Shown here piece by piece: positions 5,972-34,923 of a DNA stretch of 39,875 bases; positions within the stretch are counted from its first letter, which is position 1, and every line of letters begins with the position of its first letter. Under the pieces are notes generated by a model. The model did no database searches. It saw nothing but the letters and a program-made list of their open reading frames with translations, and had not been told where the DNA came from. Position numbers and translations under genes: made by a program. Origin of the DNA: a virus. The stretch lies in the UHGV virus genome UHGV-0200725; one strand, given 5' to 3'.

Positions 5972-6460
5972 TTATTTGATAAGAAGTGAAGGTTTCCCAA
6001 CTTTGAGTTGAGCGCCGGGGATATTTATTCCTGCTTTTAGTTGGTGTTTGATTGCCAGTTTGTCGGCTTTAATTGTCGTTTCAAACTCAACGTATTCAGG
6101 AGGAAGGGCGCTTGAGTCGATGATTTCTACAGTTTCTGACGGTTTGCGGATTGTTACCTGGTGAATACCTGCTCGAATCTTTTTCTTGCCAACCATTTCA
6201 AGCGATGACGCTATATACGCCATAATGCTGTCAATCTTATTTTGAATTACTGCAGCTCGTTCATTCAGTGACTTTGCCTCTTCCTTGAGGCGTTCAGCAT
6301 AACCAGATTCATTTTTAATAATGGCAAGAAGTTGCTCTATTTTATCGGTAAATTCTCCTTCCATGCCTTCTATTGTGTCAGCAATCATCTCTGGCTCTAA
6401 ATCTGAATCCATCAATTTTGCGTATTCATTGGCAATTTCATATAGTTTGCTCACTGGCAA
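5972..6460 (-). CDS. Siphovirus Gp157-family protein
   Basis: 162-aa ORF immediately downstream of RecT, overlapping it by 23 nt; sequence character matches Gp157-like proteins (from memory). Confidence 0.55.
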   Translation of the reverse strand: MPVSKLYEIANEYAKLMDSDLEPEMIADTIEGMEGEFTDKIEQLLAIIKNESGYAERLKEEAKSLNERAAVIQNKIDSIMAYIASSLEMVGKKKIRAGIHQVTIRKPSETVEIIDSSALPPEYVEFETTIKADKLAIKHQLKAGINIPGAQLKVGKPSLLIK

Positions 6461-7349
6461 CCTCCAGTTTCTCTTTGCATTCTGCGTAAATGGCTTGTAC
6501 GTTCTGCTGCAATTTCATTCCAGATGTCAGGCGATATGCTTCTGCAAAATATCGCTTCAAATCATCCATGTTTTCAGCCTGAGCCATTTCATCACAAAGA
6601 AGTTGTGCTTTATCCGTTATTTCCTGCTGGCGTTTCCGTTCATCTTCGCGGATATCTTCCTCTGATTTGTGCGGCATAACTGGTTCAGTCCACACACCTT
6701 CTTCTTCGTTTAGTACGTGAATAGCACTATCAAGACGTGATGCCTTAGGCCAATACTTGCTTGCACGCTTTACGACCGTCTTTCGCGCCATCTCATTCCA
6801 GTGATTTACCCATGGTCCTTTATCGCTGAATGCCGCCTTGCTTGTTTTCCTTACAGCCTCAATTTCAGCCAGACTCATCTCTTCCGTTAGATAATCACCT
6901 GCTGGCGTCTTAACTGTGCAGTAAACGCCAACGATATCACCACGATCACCGAAGGCGTTGTATTTATGGGTTGGTGCTTTATCAAGCCCGTTTGACTCAT
7001 AGGTATCGTTAGCATGAACAAGTTTTGCCTGACCCCATGAGATAACACCAGACTCCATTGCAATATGGAGCAATCCCATATAACTGATATCAAGGCACAC
7101 CATGCCGTCGCGCGGAACTAGATAAGCAAGTTTGCTGGCCGGGTTTAAGGTGATGCCGATCGCCGCAACATTGATGATGGCGTTCTGTGCGCTGGTTGGA
7201 TTTGCCAGTGCCGTTTTAGCCAGGTAATCATTTTTCTGGAAATACTGAATTGCAAACTGGCTTTCCTTAGCCCATGTCACCGTCTGTTCAGTCAATGCTC
7301 CGCAGAATAACTGCTCCTGCTGTTTAACGAATTCAACGATATTGCTCAT
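6438..7349 (-). CDS. recT: RecT-family single-strand annealing recombinase
   Basis: 303-aa ORF; motifs LAYLVPRDGMVCLDISYMGL and GPWVNHWNEMARKTVVKRASKYWP match RecT-family core. Confidence 0.85.
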   Translation of the reverse strand: MSNIVEFVKQQEQLFCGALTEQTVTWAKESQFAIQYFQKNDYLAKTALANPTSAQNAIINVAAIGITLNPASKLAYLVPRDGMVCLDISYMGLLHIAMESGVISWGQAKLVHANDTYESNGLDKAPTHKYNAFGDRGDIVGVYCTVKTPAGDYLTEEMSLAEIEAVRKTSKAAFSDKGPWVNHWNEMARKTVVKRASKYWPKASRLDSAIHVLNEEEGVWTEPVMPHKSEEDIREDERKRQQEITDKAQLLCDEMAQAENMDDLKRYFAEAYRLTSGMKLQQNVQAIYAECKEKLEVASEQTI

Positions 7350-7657
7350 GCTGCTTCTCCATAAATGTGTCTGCGTTTGAATATTGCGAAGGCATATTCA
7401 GCCTTAACTCTTTCGGTTATTGCATCCCAGAACCATTCAGCGGCTTTTTCCTGATAGTCACAGTCATCATCTTCCAGCCAGTCGATAGCGTCCTTAGTGT
7501 GTTCATCTGGTTTATATGAGCGAAGCATTTCGCTTATTGGGTCGCAACGTTTGCAGAGGCGATCAACTTCACTGTTGATTCGTTCGTAATCTTCATCAGT
7601 AAAACTTGCGATTATTTGCGATATTTCACGCTTATCATTCAGAGTCAGAATCATCAT
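7346..7657 (-). CDS. Hypothetical protein (103 aa)
   Basis: ORF with 4-nt overlap to recT. Confidence 0.65.
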   Translation of the reverse strand: MMILTLNDKREISQIIASFTDEDYERINSEVDRLCKRCDPISEMLRSYKPDEHTKDAIDWLEDDDCDYQEKAAEWFWDAITERVKAEYAFAIFKRRHIYGEAA

Positions 7658-7742
7658 CTTTCTCCTGTTCTTTGTGCTGATTGAGCATTTTGTTCATCTG
7701 ACGAATGAATTCTTCGTCTGACCAGTTATCTGTAAAACTCAT
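7635..7742 (-). CDS. Micro-ORF (35 aa), not in the supplied track
   Basis: ATG 7742-7740 overlaps the TGA of the kil-like ORF; translation MSFTDNWSDEEFIRQMNKMLNQHKEQEKDDDSDSE. Confidence 0.3.
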   Translation of the reverse strand: MSFTDNWSDEEFIRQMNKMLNQHKEQEKDDDSDSE

Positions 7743-7891
7743 TTCCTGCGATACCACGGAAGGTTGATAGCTGATTTCATCGTTTTATTTGCTTCAAGCC
7801 ACATTTTTGAATCACCAATAAATCTGGCTATTACTGCTTTGTTCTGTGCAGCACGAAGCATCTGGTGATTGATGGCTATTTCATTGCGCAT
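7739..7891 (-). CDS. kil: Kil-like host-killing / division-inhibitor protein (50 aa)
   Basis: Translation MRNEIAINHQMLRAAQNKAVIARFIGDSKMWLEANKTMKSAINLPWYRRK; core IARFIGDSKMW matches my recollection of lambda Kil; sits directly after the cIII-like gene as in lambda. Confidence 0.5.
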   Translation of the reverse strand: MRNEIAINHQMLRAAQNKAVIARFIGDSKMWLEANKTMKSAINLPWYRRK

Positions 7892-8010
7892 AACGCCTCC
7901 AGTTGTTTCTTTGCTGCTCTGATTAATTGTTTAACTCGGCGTGATAATTCAGATTCGTGCGGGTAGAAAGCGGACATGACGCCGCTACCCGCGAGCTGAA
8001 AGTGCATCAT
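7876..8010 (-). CDS. cIII: cIII-like small regulator (44 aa)
   Basis: ATG at 8010 preceded by AAGGAG (8017-8022); translation MMHFQLAGSGVMSAFYPHESELSRRVKQLIRAAKKQLEALCAMK follows the lambda cIII pattern; track ORF 7876..8115 is an over-extended version. Confidence 0.6.
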   Translation of the reverse strand: MMHFQLAGSGVMSAFYPHESELSRRVKQLIRAAKKQLEALCAMK

Positions 8011-8075
8011 GGGTAACTCCTTATATTTGATTGCATAACGAAAACGCCTCGAGTGAAGCGTTATTGGTATGCATA

Positions 8076-8100
8076 TAAAAAAGCCCTCACATAGGAGGGC
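8076..8100 (-). terminator. Rho-independent terminator inside the pL operon (tL-like, expected to be overridden by N)
   Basis: Minus strand reads GCCCTC-CTATGT-GAGGGC followed by TTTTTT. Confidence 0.55.
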
Positions 8101-8195
8101 AAAGAAGATTTCCAATAATCAGAACAAGTCGGCTCCTGTTTAGTTACGAGCGACATTGCTCCGTGTATTCACTCGTTGGAATGAATACACAGTGC

Positions 8196-8399
8196 TTATT
8201 CGCGAGCTTTGAGCATTGCGTCTGCAAACTTATATGCAGCGCTTGCTGCATAATTAACAGCTCCATCAGAATCATTATCGATAATCGATGGATTGCTAAT
8301 CATTGCTTGCATAGCCTTTGCCGCGAAGTAATCACGTAATGTCGCATCACTTGCCATTTCTGGGCGTTTGATATCTGCTTCATAAAACTCGCACATCAC
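8196..8399 (-). CDS. Hypothetical protein (about 66 aa)
   Basis: ORF in pL operon between the Ral-like and cIII-like genes; track start is GTG, ATG follows at 8396. Confidence 0.6.
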   Translation of the reverse strand: MMCEFYEADIKRPEMASDATLRDYFAAKAMQAMISNPSIIDNDSDGAVNYAASAAYKFADAMLKARE

Positions 8400-8530
8400 T
8401 CACCTCCAAGAGCATTTGCAGCCTCTTTTGCTTTGTGAATCCATAGCAGAGCCATGTAGTACACAGCCTTTTCGTCGGCTCCTGTGATATCTTGCTCTGC
8501 CATCCATTTTGTGAATTCAACTGCGTTCAT
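8396..8530 (-). CDS. Small hypothetical protein (44 aa), not in the supplied track
   Basis: ATG at 8530 preceded by AGAGGTG; translation MNAVEFTKWMAEQDITGADEKAVYYMALLWIHKAKEAANALGGE; stop overlaps next start. Confidence 0.35.
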   Translation of the reverse strand: MNAVEFTKWMAEQDITGADEKAVYYMALLWIHKAKEAANALGGE

Positions 8531-8569
8531 CTTCACCTCTATTGTTTACGCCAAAAATAAAGGCCACCA

Positions 8570-8770
8570 TCAGGCAGCCTTGTTGTTCTGTTTACCAAGT
8601 TCTCTGGCAATCATTGCCGTCGTTCGCATTGCCCATTTATCGACATATTTCCCATCTTCCATCACAGGAAACATTTCTTCAGGCTTAACCATGCATTCCG
8701 ATTGCAGCTTGCATCCATTGCATCGCTTGAATTGTCCACACCATTGATTCTTATCAATAGTCGTAGTCAT
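8570..8770 (-). CDS. ral: Ral-like restriction-alleviation protein
   Basis: 66-aa Cys-rich ORF (MTTTIDKNQWCGQFKRCNGCKLQSEC...) downstream of N in the pL operon, matching lambda Ral position and sequence as recalled. Confidence 0.6.
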   Translation of the reverse strand: MTTTIDKNQWCGQFKRCNGCKLQSECMVKPEEMFPVMEDGKYVDKWAMRTTAMIARELGKQNNKAA

Positions 8771-8848
8771 AAGGGTAGTCCTGGTATTGTTCCATCACAT
8801 CCTGAGGATGCTCTTCGAACTCTTCAAATTCTTCTTCCATATATCACC

Positions 8849-9148
8849 TCAAATAAGTGGTTTGCTGCCTAATTTCATTTTCTGGCGACCAACACAAGTC
8901 ACACCCATTTCACTGCGTGGCTTGCGGTAGTAAATACGATTCTGTTTACTCTCGACTTCTTCTGCCTTCTTGCAGCGAAGGCTTCCGAGTGATGCTGCTT
9001 TATCTGCTCTGACGCAACCAGAGAGCTTTAGCGCAATTTTTCGCGCCAGTCGCTGTTCTTGCATTGCCTGCTCACGTTGAGCCTGTCTGCGTGCTCTGCG
9101 GCGATTTCTGGCGTTATCGTCAGCCAGATATGTAATGACGACTGTCAT
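8849..9148 (-). CDS. N: N-type transcription antiterminator
   Basis: 99-aa ORF with N-terminal arginine-rich motif (NARNRRRARRQAQ) and C-terminal YYRKPRSEMGVTCVGRQKMKLGSKPLI resembling lambda N C-terminus; preceded by GGAGGT. Confidence 0.8.
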   Translation of the reverse strand: MTVVITYLADDNARNRRRARRQAQREQAMQEQRLARKIALKLSGCVRADKAASLGSLRCKKAEEVESKQNRIYYRKPRSEMGVTCVGRQKMKLGSKPLI

Positions 9149-9462
9149 GTTGACCTCCGATGAAACAACTTTGGAATTTTTTTTATTACAAAGTGGTTTC
9201 CTTCCCCGCCAATTAGACGGGGATGGAAGAGCATTTATGAGCCTTCATGGACTCTGCTCGATCAGTTCTATTTAATTAATCTCTCAACTGAATGTAAGTA
9301 TTCACATAAATCCTCCTACCTCTTGTGCAGCTTTCTTGAATATGGTGGCGGCTGCATAACGCCTATGGAATTGACTTTGGCGGTGACGCGCCGGGTGCTT
9401 ATCTTCCGGTTGCCGTCGTGCAGCTGCACTTCACGTCACCCCAAAGCCAACTACTCTTTGGT

Positions 9463-9504
9463 TCCCGCATTTCGGCGGGACAATCCCATCAATGTTAAAG
9501 AGCC
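9463..9504 (-). promoter_or_regulatory. nutL (boxA and boxB)
   Basis: Minus strand: boxA GGCTCTTTAACAT (9504-9492), then boxB hairpin TCCCGC-CGAAAT-GCGGGA (9480-9463), identical to the boxB downstream of cro. Confidence 0.6.
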
Positions 9505-9548
9505 TGCCAATCTGTTCCGTTTGGCTTCCAGCGTCCTGCTGATGGCTT

Positions 9549-9640
9549 AAATTTAAGATCTCTTTAATTAATGGTCAAGAGTATTTTTGAAGAAAACTTA
9601 AATTTTCTTTCGTAACTTAAGTTTGGCTTTGATTTTTAAA
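9549..9640 (-). promoter_or_regulatory. pL promoter with OL operators
   Basis: Minus strand -35 TTGACC (9577-9572), 17-nt spacer, -10 TAAATT (9554-9549); overlapping operator-like palindromes ATTTAAGATCTCTTTAAT (9551-9568) and TTGAAGAAAACTTAAAT (9587-9603). Confidence 0.55.
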
Positions 9641-9644
9641 GGAA

Positions 9645-9669
9645 ATAAAAAAAAGGGGCGAATGCCCCC
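9645..9669 (-). terminator. Rho-independent terminator immediately after c2
   Basis: Minus strand reads GGGGGCATTCGCCCC followed by a 9-T run; starts right after the c2 stop at 9670-9672. Confidence 0.65.
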
Positions 9670-10320
9670 TTATGGAAGGTTTGCTAGTTTTGCATCGACA
9701 ACTACGCCGATGATTTTGCAGTTTCCGTTGATCTCGATCATCGGATATTGTGGGTTAAGTGGTTTTAGAAACTTCCTGCCTGCATCAATAACTAACTTCT
9801 TGAAAGTTGCCTCGTTTTCTCCTTCGAGCTTTGCAACTACCAGTTTCCCGTTACGCGGCTCTACTTCAGGATCGACGAGTATTATCATTCCTTCAGGGAT
9901 ACTGAGACCGGCCGGAGCCGTCATTGAGTCTCCCTTCACGTCCAACCAAAACGAATCTTCTGAACAGTCTACGGTTGTATCGTACCAGTTATCTATTGCA
10001 CGCTTATGATATGGTTCTACAGCTTCCATCCAGCATCCTGCGCTCACCCAGCTAATCAGAGGGAATGACCCTCTTGGATCATGCCTACTGTGATAGGCAA
10101 TGTTTGAAAGACTTTCCTCTCCTTTCATCAGATAGTCAGGGGAACACTTCAACGCATTAGCCAGGGCGAGAAGATTCTCTCCATTTGGCTCTGTCTCAGA
10201 GCGTTCCCACTGAGATATGGCAACATTAGACACGCCGACCATCTTTCCAAGTGCGGCCTGCCTGATCTTGAGTTCTTTTCTCCGAGCGCGAATGCGCTCT
10301 CCCATCAATTGAGTTTTCAT
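9670..10320 (-). CDS. c2: CI-type repressor (P22 C2-like), HTH plus S24 LexA-like autocleavage domain
   Basis: 216-aa ORF; N-terminal HTH (QAALGKMVGVSNVAISQWERSE), C-terminal Ser/Lys autoprotease region (GDSMTAPAGLSIPEGMIILVD...KLVVAKL); matches P22 C2 as recalled. Confidence 0.9.
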   Translation of the reverse strand: MKTQLMGERIRARRKELKIRQAALGKMVGVSNVAISQWERSETEPNGENLLALANALKCSPDYLMKGEESLSNIAYHSRHDPRGSFPLISWVSAGCWMEAVEPYHKRAIDNWYDTTVDCSEDSFWLDVKGDSMTAPAGLSIPEGMIILVDPEVEPRNGKLVVAKLEGENEATFKKLVIDAGRKFLKPLNPQYPMIEINGNCKIIGVVVDAKLANLP

Positions 10321-10400
10321 AGTTAAGACATCTTAAATAAACTTGACTTAAGATTCCTTTAGTGGATAATTTAAGTGTTCTTTAATTTCGGAGCGAGTCT
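10321..10400. promoter_or_regulatory. OR operator region with divergent pRM/pR
   Basis: Three operator-like sites (AGTTAAGACATCTTAAAT, ACTTAAGATTCCTTTAGT, ATTTAAGTGTTCTTTAAT) between c2 and cro starts; pR -35 TTGACT at 10344-10349. Confidence 0.7.
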
Positions 10401-10586
10401 ATGTACAAGAAAGATGTTATCGACCACTTCGGAACCCAGCGTGCTGTAGCTAAAGCGTTAGGCATTAGCGACGCAGCAGTCTCTCAGTGGAAGGAAGTCA
10501 TCCCAGAGAAAGACGCCTATCGACTGGAAGTCGTTACAGCTGGCGCCCTGAAGTATCAAGAAAGCGCTTACCGCAAAGCGGCATAA
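10401..10586 (+). CDS. cro: Cro-type repressor
   Basis: 61-aa HTH protein (GTQRAVAKALGISDAAVSQW) transcribed divergently from c2 across the operator region. Confidence 0.85.
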   Translation: MYKKDVIDHFGTQRAVAKALGISDAAVSQWKEVIPEKDAYRLEVVTAGALKYQESAYRKAA

Positions 10587-10592
10587 GCAAAT

Positions 10593-10637
10593 TGCTCTTT
10601 AACAGTCATGGTCCTCATTCCCGCCGAAATGCGGGAA
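10593..10637 (+). promoter_or_regulatory. nutR (boxA and boxB)
   Basis: boxA TGCTCTTTAACAG (10593-10605), boxB hairpin TTCCCGC-CGAAAT-GCGGGAA (10618-10637). Confidence 0.6.
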
Positions 10638-10694
10638 TACAACGCGCATAAGTTGATGCGCATAACTTCTTATTTGTTAAGGAAATACTTACAT

Positions 10695-10988
10695 ATGGTT
10701 CGTGCAAACAAACGCAACGAGGCTCTACGAATCGAGAGTGCGTTGCTTAACAAAATCGCAATGCTTGGAACTGAGAAGACAGCGGAAGCTGTGGGAGTTG
10801 ATAAGTCGCAGATCAGCAGGTGGAAGAGGGACTGGATTCCAAAGTTCTCAATGCTGCTTGCTGTTCTTGAATGGGGCGTCGTTGACGACGACATGGCTCG
10901 ATTGGCACGACAAGTTGCTTCGATTCTCACCAATAAAAAACGCCCGGCGGCAACCGAGCGTTCTGATCAAATACAAATGGAATTTTAA
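10695..10988 (+). CDS. c1: CII-type transcriptional activator (P22 C1-like)
   Basis: ATG at 10695 preceded by AAGGA; translation MVRANKRNEALRIESALLNKIAMLGTEKTAEAVGVDKSQISRWKRDW...; the track ORF from 10608 is an upstream over-extension. Confidence 0.8.
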   Translation: MVRANKRNEALRIESALLNKIAMLGTEKTAEAVGVDKSQISRWKRDWIPKFSMLLAVLEWGVVDDDMARLARQVASILTNKKRPAATERSDQIQMEF

Positions 10989-33085: not shown

Positions 33086-34923
33086 TGAAAGTAACTGCAA
33101 ACGGTAAGACATTTACCTTTCCTGATGGTACGAGCACCGAAGATATTGGCACCGCCATTGATGAGTATTTTGCTGGTCAGGCTGTTCAGCAACAAATAGT
33201 TAATCAGGCCAATAATGCACCAACACGGGAAGAACCATCATTGATGCAACAAGCTGGCGATTGGCTCACTGGTGGTCAAAGTGCAGGGCAAATTGCAGAA
33301 CAGGCTGGTCGTGGTCTGGTAAACATACCATTTGACGTATTGCAGGGCGGCGCAAGTCTGATTAATGCAATCAGTCAGGGGCTTGGTGGACCCAAGGTTT
33401 TGGATGATGTTTATCGTCCAGTAGACAGACCGACAGACCCCTACGCGCAAGCCGGTGAAACAATTGGTGGGTATTTAGTTCCAGGAGTTGGAACGGCAGG
33501 AAGCATGGCTATTGGATCACTGGCAGAGGCCGCAAATCAGAAAGGCGATTTCGCACAAAATGCAGCTAAAAATGCCGGAGTTAACCTTGCCACTCAGGGT
33601 GTTCTTTCCGCAGCAGCAAAGGGAATAGGGCGTGGAATAACGGCTATAAAAGGTGATATTGCGCCAGAAGTGGCGAAGAAAATTGCCACATCAGAATCGA
33701 TGGGCGTGACACCAATGACATCTGATGTTATCCCGCCGAAAAATGCTTTCACTCGCGGCCTAACTCAGGATGCCGAGGGGGCTTTGCTCGGGACAGGCTC
33801 AAAGCGAGCGGAGCAATATGCAACGCGTAGTAAGCTGGTAAGTAATTATTTTGACCGTTTTGGTGAGTACAACCCTGATGATGTGGTGAAATCTCTTACC
33901 ACCACGTTAAGGGGGCGGAAGGATGCCGCTGGCGCTGTTATCAATGACGTCACCAATAAAATGGGTAATGCCGCAGTTGATACCACAAATACCATGAATG
34001 CTCTGAATACAGCGATCGCAAGACAGGAACGGCTTGGGACGTCTGCCAATCAAAGCCTGCTTACATCCTTGCGTAACCTACGTGAAGAATTAGCAAACCC
34101 TGCAACTGATTTGGATGTTACGTTTGATCTCTTGCGTCAGCACAGAACAGCATTTAGATCTAATGTTCAGGGAGATGCTATGGTCTTCCCCAACCAGGCA
34201 AAAGCAGCTACCAATATGGTAGAGAATGCAATGTCAAAAGACCTTCGTAACGCAGTTGCTAAAAACCTCGGTGCATCAGACGCAGCAAAATACCTTAAAG
34301 CAAATTCCGATTATGCAAACGTTTATAATAAGGTGCTTAATAAAAACATTGCTAACAAGCTCAACAAGGCAAGCAGTGAAGCCAGTCCTGAACTTATAAA
34401 TACCGTTGTATTAAGCAGAAAACCATCTGACGTGAAACGAATATGGAGCGCCCTGGATGATAAAGGGAAAGATGCTATGCGTGCAGCTTACGTCAGCAAA
34501 ATAGCGGAAAAGGCCGGTGACTCTCCAGCCAAGTTCATCACTGAAGTTAATAAGCTGAAATCTCAGTCAGGCGGTGAAATTTACAACACTATTTTTTCTG
34601 GAAAGCACATGAAAGAGCTTGATGCTCTTCATGAAGTTCTACAGCAAACAGCAAGGTCAGACACCGCAAATGTAGTAACTCAGACGGGGCAATCACAAGC
34701 CAACAGGATAAGGACGATTGGCGCAACTGCGACTCTTGGTGTATCAATGGGGCTTGAGGCTGGCTTTGGTGCAATGATGCGTTTGTATGAGTCCAAAGCA
34801 GCAAGGAATGCTCTCTTACGTCTGGCAAACACTAAAGCTGGAACGCCAGCCTATGAAAGAGCGTTGAGTAACGCTGCAAATGCCATCAGGCCGCTGCTTG
34901 CTACTGAGGCAACACAGCAGTAA
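33082..34923 (+). CDS. 16: Ejection protein (P22 gp16-type)
   Basis: 613-aa ORF, last of the ejection-protein trio. Confidence 0.8.

Follow-up and report, generated by a model that had tools for sequence, protein, structure and literature searches.

The interval from 7635 to 8840 on the minus strand of UHGV virus genome UHGV-0200725, analysed here as a single stretch of 39,875 nucleotides (hereafter, the window), contains seven small open reading frames (ORFs) that lie head-to-tail and cover approximately 81% of it. In their order on the minus strand these are orf28 (28 aa), ral (66 aa), o44 (44 aa), o66 (66 aa), cIII (44 aa), kil (50 aa), and o35 (35 aa). It is highly probable (roughly 85%) that the interval comes from a P22-like lambdoid phage, in which it forms the promoter-proximal stretch of the leftward early (pL) operon and is transcribed as an N-antiterminated polycistronic mRNA encoding seven genuine small proteins. 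The gene stack is ordinary and none of its seven genes is new; its modules form a new mosaic. Indeed, the 28-, 35-, 44-, and 66-aa ORFs were already catalogued, all of them in PHROG families, a point that was missing from an earlier sequence-only reading of this DNA.

Gene content and layout of the probable early-left operon

The five micro-ORFs singled out by the sequence-only reading were all found on the minus strand at the positions claimed for them; the absence of several of them from the ORF track, which it had also remarked upon, is merely an effect of that track's 60-aa length cut-off. The first gene of the pL operon encodes an N-like antiterminator of 99 aa (8849..9148, minus strand; phrog_271, E = 1e-36), which matches PF25694 weakly and has a GGAGG 5 nt 5' of its ATG. 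A promoter-like site (9578-9550, minus strand) and the gene for a cI-type repressor with HTH and Peptidase_S24 domains (9670-10320) are located upstream of N. Together with this repressor, the flanking context of the interval comprises a CII gene (10608-10988; PF05269, 160.6 bits), a RecT-family recombinase gene (6438..7349, minus strand; PF03837, 112.4 bits), and a Sipho_Gp157 protein.

Translation appears to be chained along the seven genes. Good Shine-Dalgarno sites precede orf28, o44, o66, cIII, and kil, the other genes begin inside their predecessor or at its stop, and successive genes overlap by 17 nt (orf28/ral), 1 nt (o44/o66), 16 nt (cIII/kil), 4 nt (kil/o35), and 23 nt (o35/o103). 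The chain is broken twice, by a 39-nt gap after ral and by a 185-nt spacer before cIII, and at both breaks N would override terminator-like hairpins. From sequence, we infer this transcription of the interval, its antitermination, and translational coupling, as well as all biochemical functions proposed below. Mosaic breakpoints were placed at 8865/8868, 8538, 8416, 8195, approximately 8075, 7893, 7742, and 7693; the module boundaries lie at gene starts, at ribosome-binding sites (RBSs), and once inside a gene, which is the classic lambdoid mosaic. Apart from orf28, the region is textbook lambdoid mosaicism with small genes that are apparently translationally chained. None of the micro-ORFs matched NCBIfam or PADLOC, and comparison of 7000-10500 with Rfam gave no credible hit.

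The Ral-, cIII-, and Kil-like identities proposed from the letters alone were borne out, with all three proteins scoring above their Pfam thresholds. The 66-aa restriction-alleviation protein Ral (8570..8770, minus strand; PF11058, 159.8 bits against a cut-off of 25) is 98% identical to lambda Ral and would stimulate de novo methylation by type IA restriction-modification enzymes. A consensus scan identified a terminator-like hairpin with a T-run across the ral stop codon (8560..8581, minus strand), the sequence of which is common to lambda. On the opposite strand, an antisense 87-aa ORF (8484-8747, plus strand) was judged unlikely because variation tracks the ral frame.

cIII (7876..8010, minus strand) begins six nt downstream of AAGGAG, in agreement with the strong RBS claimed for it, and matches PF08134 with 104.7 bits (cut-off 25), residues 2-38 corresponding to positions 1-37 of the 37-position model; it also matches phrog_550 (E = 2.6e-13) and RefSeq WP_000972063 (44 aa). 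Its length, inside the family's range of about 40-55 aa, and its position just upstream of kil and overlapping it, in a phage with a CII gene, fit the placement of cIII, the product of which would block the FtsH protease and so stabilise CII. The start of kil had been described as overlapping the cIII stop, and the overlap exists but, at 16 nt, is not limited to the stop. Kil itself (7739..7891, minus strand; 50 aa) belongs to a family of host cell-division inhibitors (PF06301, Lambda_Kil, 69.3 bits against 27.6; phrog_2055 matched at 1-50/50, E = 7e-36) and would block FtsZ-ring formation.

The two genes between ral and the spacer probably encode conserved accessory proteins. o44 (8396..8530, minus strand) matches phrog_24660 at 1-44/44 (E = 4e-35) and is the RefSeq hypothetical protein WP_021538742; its homologues form 17 protein clusters, one from Cronobacter, and include a 45-aa annotated gene, 64% identical, in the virulent T7-like Salmonella phage KKP 3828. 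As had been proposed, o44 is joined to the following gene, its TGA and the next ATG having one base in common (TGATG). That gene, o66 (8196..8396, minus strand), had been assigned 67 aa, a length we correct to 66 aa: its start is most likely ATG 8396, with GGAGG six nt 5', and the RefSeq form (hypothetical protein WP_000333101) is also 66 aa, while a start at GTG 8399 would have a spacer of just 3 nt. o66 is predicted to form a helical hairpin (two helices in the AF2 model, pLDDT 76). None of the 1488 homologues in its family carries a Pfam domain, and a fold search returned no PDB match and only uncharacterised viral ones.

A structured non-coding spacer (8011..8195, minus strand; MFE -67.6 kcal/mol, z = -5.7) separates o66 from cIII and contains two terminator-like hairpins found by a terminator scan (8100-8083 and 8062-8043, minus strand) as well as the cIII leader. 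It corresponds to the lambda ral-ea10 spacer (33920-34045) fused to the lambda ea10-cIII leader (33483-33522). Two candidate genes in this area, a 31-aa ORF (8156-8061) and a 43-aa ORF (8275-8144), were rejected because the stretch lacks codon periodicity, is strongly structured, and is a non-coding linker common to lambda.

Coding evidence and the status of o35

Coding signatures and ORF integrity were assessed over 395 loci. The check proposed with the sequence-only reading, namely whether close relatives interrupt the micro-ORFs, was run and found them uninterrupted: all alleles were intact for orf28 (34/34), kil (63/63), o44 (9/9), and o35 (8/8), and 14 of 15 for cIII, although an intact frame says little by itself when the majority of relatives exceed 95% identity. 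An excess of variable sites at codon position 3 and of synonymous changes was observed in orf28, ral, kil (23 synonymous and 12 non-synonymous sites), and cIII, while the 185-nt intergenic control lacked codon periodicity (10:7:8). Close alleles of o44 displayed no position-3 bias, and a few frameshifted o44 variants occur. The comparative data support all seven ORFs as coding, most strongly orf28 and most weakly o35.

Divergent homologues are known for each of the short ORFs, which makes it very improbable that there are chance frames among them whose conservation reflects only the recent common ancestry of near-identical prophages. Consistent with such an origin, the majority of retrieved copies are 95-100% identical, and the close-allele statistics of o44 and o66 are based on 21 and 8 variable sites. 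However, orf28 carries in-frame indels in ST415, Kluyvera, and other contigs, the o44 homologue of the T7-like phage is 64% identical, o66 recurs at 43-76% identity across many viral contigs, and the non-coding control spacer lacks periodicity.

The 35-aa acidic micro-protein o35 (7635..7742, minus strand) is tied to kil, as had been suggested, through an ATGA overlap with the kil stop, and is annotated in phage Kapi1. It is followed by o103 (7346..7657, minus strand; 103 aa, phrog_3486), and we suggest that o35 is the leading micro-gene of an o103-RecT recombination module, at the position of P22 Arf. The geometry matches that of Arf, a micro-gene overlapping the kil stop directly before the recombinase module. 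Homology to P22 Arf (accessory recombination function, phrog_2445) could not be established: the similarity does not extend beyond the motif (W/F)SDEEFI, the PHROG match gave E = 0.06, pairwise blastp gave E = 0.005 over 12 residues, and hhalign returned a probability of 15%.

Among relatives, o35 occurs with three tail variants behind a common head, MSFTDNWSDEEFIRQM. This pattern raises the question of whether o35 is instead what module exchange has left, in truncated form, of a longer (52-60 aa) gene at the Arf position, or a chance frame in the kil-to-o103 junction that DNA-level constraints such as the o103 RBS and recombination linker sequence hold open; we regard this as rather unlikely. 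o35 shares just its first 16 codons with the 52- and 56-aa variants, the breakpoint at 7693 falls inside the ORF, and the match to phrog_17766, a profile of 60 positions, is confined to positions 1-32. The tail overlaps the RBS and start of o103, PGAP does not call o35, one of approximately 110 kil-linked copies is cut to 7 codons, and a synonymous excess is absent (3 synonymous and 11 non-synonymous variable sites, p=0.31), although position 3 is enriched (p=0.017). On the other hand, the intact full-length alleles represent 63 copies, and the frame is open in all three tail types. Moreover, in HK140, which lacks kil, o35 travels with the o103-RecT module: homology sets in precisely at its ATG, and the ATGA overlap is remade with an unrelated upstream gene. 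In P22 the corresponding place is taken by arf (47 aa), a genetically defined gene (PMC12315714).

orf28 and restriction alleviation

orf28 (8754..8840, minus strand) encodes an acidic, aromatic micro-protein with a net charge of -12 and seven aromatic residues. Its protein is identical to that of lambda orf28 (NP_040623, lambdap47) at 28/28 positions, with two synonymous nucleotide differences, and it matches phrog_16060 at 1-28/28 (E = 7e-19). As the sequence-only reading had described, GAGGTG lies upstream (GAGGT at 5 nt), providing orf28 with its own RBS, and its stop lies within the first codons of ral (start 8770), with the same 17-nt overlap as in lambda. To our knowledge, orf28 has received no functional assignment in its 40 years as part of the lambda sequence.

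Some of the orf28 sequences were fetched with a degenerate pattern that enforces its motif, and all statistics quoted here leave them out. Of the 22 variable sites, 18 are third codon positions (p=4e-6) and 12 are synonymous, compared to 13% expected, and in divergent homologues indels are in frame. orf28 is intact upstream of ral in 53/53 distinct contexts, none selected by the motif pattern; 52 of these satisfy the motif strictly, and in the last the frame is intact but an E is replaced by D. A scan of genome contigs for Ral yielded nearly exclusively lambda DNA contamination and one useful Kluyvera prophage, in which orf28 retains YQDYPYD and 4/4 changes are synonymous. A metagenome scan recovered a single contig. 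In three contigs where ral is internally deleted, an intact orf28 homologue lies behind a Lar-family restriction-alleviation gene, and two of these homologues differ at 11/87 nt, with 8 of the differences synonymous.

These patterns suggest that orf28 varies as a genuine protein does and that its neighbour is always an anti-restriction gene, which is the one mildly new point of this analysis, and we infer that orf28 is a real, selected acidic peptide linked to restriction alleviation. A more specific proposal, which we put forward tentatively, is that orf28 is neither a leader ORF nor a relic of annotation but a functional micro-protein dedicated to the alleviation of type I restriction, which would assist or modulate both Ral-type and Lar-type proteins as their partner; as part of this proposal, orf28 would be under purifying selection directly behind the Lar-family gene where ral is deleted. 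In lambda, in P22, and at every divergent ral locus seen, orf28 is joined to the ral start.

It is also possible, if doubtful, that orf28 is only a leader ORF, the translation of which brings ribosomes to a weak ral start and unfolds it, the peptide itself being functionless. The overlap of the two genes fits such a role, as ral has just AGGA with an 8-nt spacer, and a hairpin predicted to span ral codons 3-12 together with the orf28 stop would be opened by a terminating ribosome. In addition, the orf28 RBS, orf28, and ral travel together in a module bounded by 8865/8868 and 8538, and lambda forms plaques without orf28 (PMC10695390). Against this, the amino-acid sequence is conserved beyond what an open frame demands, as judged from the synonymous excess and from the Kluyvera copy, and the intact homologues behind the Lar-family gene in ral-deleted contigs count against orf28 as a mere ral leader. 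If orf28 does help Ral or Lar to evade type I restriction, a classic anti-restriction system would gain a component, and its contribution might account for the observation in one study that cloned ral by itself has little effect (PMC9410887).

Annotation and comparison with lambdoid phages

The main practical consequence concerns annotation: orf28 (87 nt including the stop codon) and o35 (108 nt), though conserved, are routinely dropped by automatic annotation. PGAP calls neither in the SJC33 and EC100 prophages and leaves orf28 uncalled in 19AR1321; the HK140 annotation as deposited likewise lacks o35.

The same gene order is found in lambda, P22, CUS-3, Kapi1, HK140, and E. coli prophages. 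The lambda pL operon, N-(sieB)-orf28-ral-ea10-cIII-kil-gam (NC_001416, 33187-35438), shares its order and strand logic with the window, along with the identical orf28 protein, the near-identical Ral, the orf28/ral overlap, the hairpin after ral, the principle of a cIII/kil overlap, and the two spacers from which the o66-cIII spacer of the window is built. In contrast, lambda has sieB between N and orf28, which the window lacks at that place, and an ea10 that splits the spacer, where the window has no ea10 and carries o44 and o66 between ral and the common spacer. The window's cIII is of the PF08134 type and scores just 12.4 bits on the lambda-type model PF02061, and kil is followed by o35-o103-RecT rather than by gam-bet-exo.

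The early-left operon of P22, 24-(sieB)-ral-orf78-orf87-17-c3-kil-arf-erf (NC_002371), has the same architecture as the window. Upstream of ral it contains an unannotated, protein-identical orf28; ral is followed by two small ORFs, the first of which ends in KALGKE*, like the NALGGE* of o44; and arf lies across the kil stop, ahead of the recombinase gene, as o35 does in the window. P22 Kil, C3, and Arf, however, are of other sequence types, and its recombinase is Erf rather than RecT. The annotation of Kapi1 lists cIII, kil, the 35-aa ORF, o103, and RecT in the order of the window. Individual modules of Kapi1, CUS-3, HK140, and the prophages of SJC33, EC100, and 19AR1321 are 96-100% identical to the window, and the best single record covers at most 83% of the 2-kb region.

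Gene layout and identities

Reading the minus strand from 7300 to 9300 and listing all ORFs of at least 20 aa revealed a leftward gene series that runs without a break from an N-like gene (9148-8849, 99 aa) to recT (7349-6438, 303 aa). Between these lie orf28 (8840-8754, 28 aa), ral (8770-8570, 66 aa), o44 (8530-8396, 44 aa), o66 (8396-8196, 66 aa), a 185-nt spacer (8195-8011), cIII (8010-7876, 44 aa), kil (7891-7739, 50 aa), o35 (7742-7635, 35 aa) and o103 (7657-7346, 103 aa), all on the minus strand, where o-names are working names by length. The seven small genes from orf28 to o35 occupy approximately 982 of the 1206 nt (81%) of the interval 7635-8840. GAGGT is found 5 nt upstream of orf28 and 4 nt upstream of o44, and AAGGAG lies upstream of cIII. 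The genes overlap by 17 nt at orf28/ral (ral's own RBS is merely AGGA at 8 nt), by 16 nt at cIII/kil (GGAGG 4 nt upstream of kil) and by 23 nt at o35/o103; the kil/o35 and o103/recT junctions are both ATGA, and o44 meets o66 in TGATG, with GGAGG 6 nt upstream of the ATG at 8396. This geometry and the ORF list bear out the coordinates and descriptions that a sequence-only reading had given for a dense micro-gene stack around cIII and kil, apart from the length of its '67-aa gene': because a GTG start at 8399 would leave a spacer of just 3 nt and the RefSeq entry has 66 aa, we read o66 as 66 aa from the ATG.

Pfam models identified Ral (PF11058, 159.8 bits), Kil (PF06301, 69.3 bits) and cIII (PF08134, 104.7 bits, versus just 12.4 bits for the lambda-type model PF02061), and PHROG families were found for all seven small genes and o103. 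The orf28 protein is identical at 28/28 residues to lambda orf28 (lambdap47, NP_040623); the DNA differs at two synonymous sites, and the 17-nt ral overlap is common to both. orf28 is also annotated in Salmonella phage UAB_Phi20 (PMC4837284), and in lambda it was non-essential for plaque formation in a CRISPRi screen (PMC10695390). RefSeq holds o44 (WP_021538742) and o66 (WP_000333101), and the annotation of E. coli phage Kapi1 includes o35. PGAP labels the 44-aa cIII 'hypothetical protein' and, in the prophages inspected, calls neither orf28 nor o35. For Kapi1 cIII (locus L003:3268-3453), the annotation takes an upstream start that gives 61 aa; RBS, Pfam and RefSeq all favour 44 aa. In phage HK140 (L002:3267-3350), the o35 ORF sits unannotated in an 84-nt 'gap'.

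Coding evidence and mosaic joints

To assess coding, 395 related loci were gathered and their distinct alleles scored against the window. The frame was intact in 34/34 alleles of orf28, 63/63 of kil, 65/72 of ral, 14/15 of cIII, 9/9 of o44, 9/10 of o66 and 8/8 of o35. Synonymous to non-synonymous variable sites numbered 23:12 in kil (p=4e-9 for excess synonymous change), 39:50 in ral (p=5e-8), 10:12 in cIII (p=0.008), 5:3 in o66 (p=0.01) and 8:13 in o44 (p=0.046), and codon periodicity was absent from the 185-nt spacer used as control (10:7:8). o66 has 1488 database homologues, and many more distant ones, at 43-76% identity, occur on viral contigs. For o44 the coding signal among close alleles is weak; an annotated 45-aa homologue, 64% identical, occurs in the virulent T7-like (Autographiviridae) Salmonella phage KKP 3828 (OR067835; L394:1501-1638), and another is present in Cronobacter. 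The KKP 3828 copy is the sole full-length homologue in a collection of 50,697 phage records, where the one other match is weak and partial (E=0.01, 41% identity). In the 99-aa database protein P0115, o44 is fused in frame with an o66-family protein, which could be a genuine fusion or a lost stop codon.

o35 is the weakest coding case of the seven: no synonymous excess was found (3:11, p=0.31), position-3 enrichment reaches just p=0.017, and one of approximately 110 kil-linked copies is interrupted by a stop after 7 codons (MSFTDNW*, L022:3150-3175). Its first 16 codons (MSFTDNWSDEEFIRQM) are common to 52- and 56-aa variants preceding Erf-type modules, with the breakpoint at 7693. HK140 lacks kil, and its homology to the window starts exactly at the o35 ATG; there an unrelated 56-aa gene ends in a new ATGA overlap with o35, which thus behaves like the leading gene of the o103-RecT module. 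o35 holds the same operon position as P22 Arf, a protein known solely to assist recombination without being essential (PMC12315714), but profile comparison did not establish homology between the two (hhalign probability 15%).

Alignment end-points cluster at 8865/8868 (just inside the N end, upstream of the orf28 RBS), 8538 (the o44 RBS), 8416, 8195 (the base after the o66 stop), approximately 8075, 7893 (the kil start), 7742 (the o35 start) and 7693. The joint at 7893 places the last five cIII codons in the kil module. The joint at 8416 corresponds to a common C-terminal tail, ...ALG(G/K/E)E*, shared by unrelated upstream proteins of 44, 78, 98 and 99 aa: ...ALGGE* in o44, ...KALGKE* in P22 orf78, ...KALGGE* in a 98-aa prophage protein of E. 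coli EC100 and ...KALGEE* in a 99-aa phage ST415 protein (window 8396-8416, minus strand; L005:980-996, L167:1935-1950, L168:2025-2040). The tail encodes the RBS of the following gene (in the window, GGAGGTGAGTGATG) and so serves both as a conserved linker and as a recombination joint.

The spacer at 8011-8195 (minus strand) is the most widely common segment (approximately 300/395 loci) and equals the ral-ea10 spacer of lambda (33920-34045) fused to its ea10-cIII leader (33483-33522). It is strongly structured (z=-5.7), with a perfect 12-bp hairpin directly after the o66 stop and two terminator-like hairpins. Luk and Szybalski, in 1983, reportedly placed the tL2 terminator cluster in the interval from bet to ral, which presumably contains the two lambda spacers matched here. 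The predicted fold would pair the cIII Shine-Dalgarno sequence with an upstream CUUCUU, recalling the structural control of cIII translation in lambda.

orf28 beside Ral and Lar

Leaving out loci retrieved by a motif-enforcing pattern, 18/22 variable sites in the part of orf28 not overlapping ral fall at codon position 3 (p=4e-6), and 12 are synonymous where 13% would be expected (p=4e-6). The frame is also kept in divergent homologues, which were located via Ral rather than orf28, namely those of Salmonella phage ST415 (MEEEFEEFDEHPQDVMNQYQEYPYGYDY) and a Kluyvera prophage (VEDEFDEHPDDDMSRYQDYPYDH) whose Ral is 59% identical; the latter carries indels of -9 and -6 nt, and its changes in YQDYPYD are 4/4 synonymous. 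Across distinct ral contexts not chosen by the motif pattern, the ORF is present in 53/53, and 52/53 pass a strict motif test, the remaining one being an intact ORF with a single E-to-D change. In Kluyvera genomosp. 1 (L192:2498-2694), the ral homologue is frameshifted near codon 48 and the upstream orf28-like ORF is intact.

That orf28 serves as a leader ORF for ral still has support, given that it overlaps the ral start, that the ral RBS is weak and that a predicted hairpin spans the orf28 stop and ral codons 3-12. However, orf28 also persists in contigs from which ral is deleted. A pattern search for the EHPDDDM subfamily yielded six more contigs with an ORF overlapping the start of a Ral homologue and, in a small sample of three independent contigs (L284, L398 and L401), the order N peptide (PF25694), Lar-family protein (PF14354, 34.0 bits with the cut-off at 28.6), orf28-like ORF. 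Here the orf28 homologue is intact and overlaps the Lar-family gene's stop (L398 reverse complement 491-791; L284; L401:1-170), and ral is cut down to approximately 8 codons, the first few joined to the last two and followed by the same terminator hairpin. Between L284 and L398, 11/87 nt of the ORF differ, nine at third positions: eight changes are synonymous, two are conservative and one converts the start from ATG to GTG; beyond the pattern-constrained part, 5 are synonymous and 2 non-synonymous, alongside the start change. orf28 therefore persists under selection independent of ral, which argues against a pure leader role. orf28 is thus associated with each of the two protein families known to alleviate type IA restriction, Ral and Lar, an association of which we found no mention in the searchable literature; we regard it as a modest lead.

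Most 'Ral' matches in GTDB species-representative genomes (L171-L191) are lambda DNA in unrelated taxa, including Shewanella, Pseudomonas, Neobacillus and Kitasatospora, on low-coverage contigs, some of approximately 48.4-48.5 kb, and almost certainly represent contamination with lambda, as a spike-in or from the laboratory. MW057783.1, 'Campylobacter phage CJLB-4' (48,361 bp), carries a lambda-type Ral, with 98.5% identity to that of the window, in the place where lambda has it, and looks like lambda itself.

The early-left operon compared with lambda and P22

The region represents a lambdoid phage's early-left (pL) operon. A cI-type repressor gene (HTH_3 and Peptidase_S24) lies upstream on the same strand, with a CII gene divergent from it; recT and a Sipho_Gp157 gene follow downstream. 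A promoter-like site is found at 9578-9550, and terminator-like hairpins on the minus strand at 8581-8560, 8100-8083 and 8062-8043. One N-antiterminated leftward transcript would bear all genes, with ribosomes entering at the strong RBSs and moved across overlapping genes by termination-reinitiation. By family name, cIII would inhibit FtsH and thereby shield CII, Kil would inhibit FtsZ and Ral would enhance type IA modification, the route by which Ral alleviates restriction (reviewed in PMC12707154). Family membership and gene geometry make this transcript, reinitiation and these functions the most likely arrangement.

By DNA similarity, the closest records are P22-like and lambda-like coliphages, together with prophages of E. 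coli, and none spans over 83% of the 2-kb region; the window therefore combines known modules in a new mosaic. The micro-gene stack is a correct, well described and ordinary finding, with no categorically new element, and it matches the lambda and P22 pL operons gene for gene. The differences are module swaps: sieB and ea10 are missing, o44 and o66 follow ral, cIII is of the PF08134 type, and o35-o103-RecT stands in place of gam-bet-exo or arf-erf.
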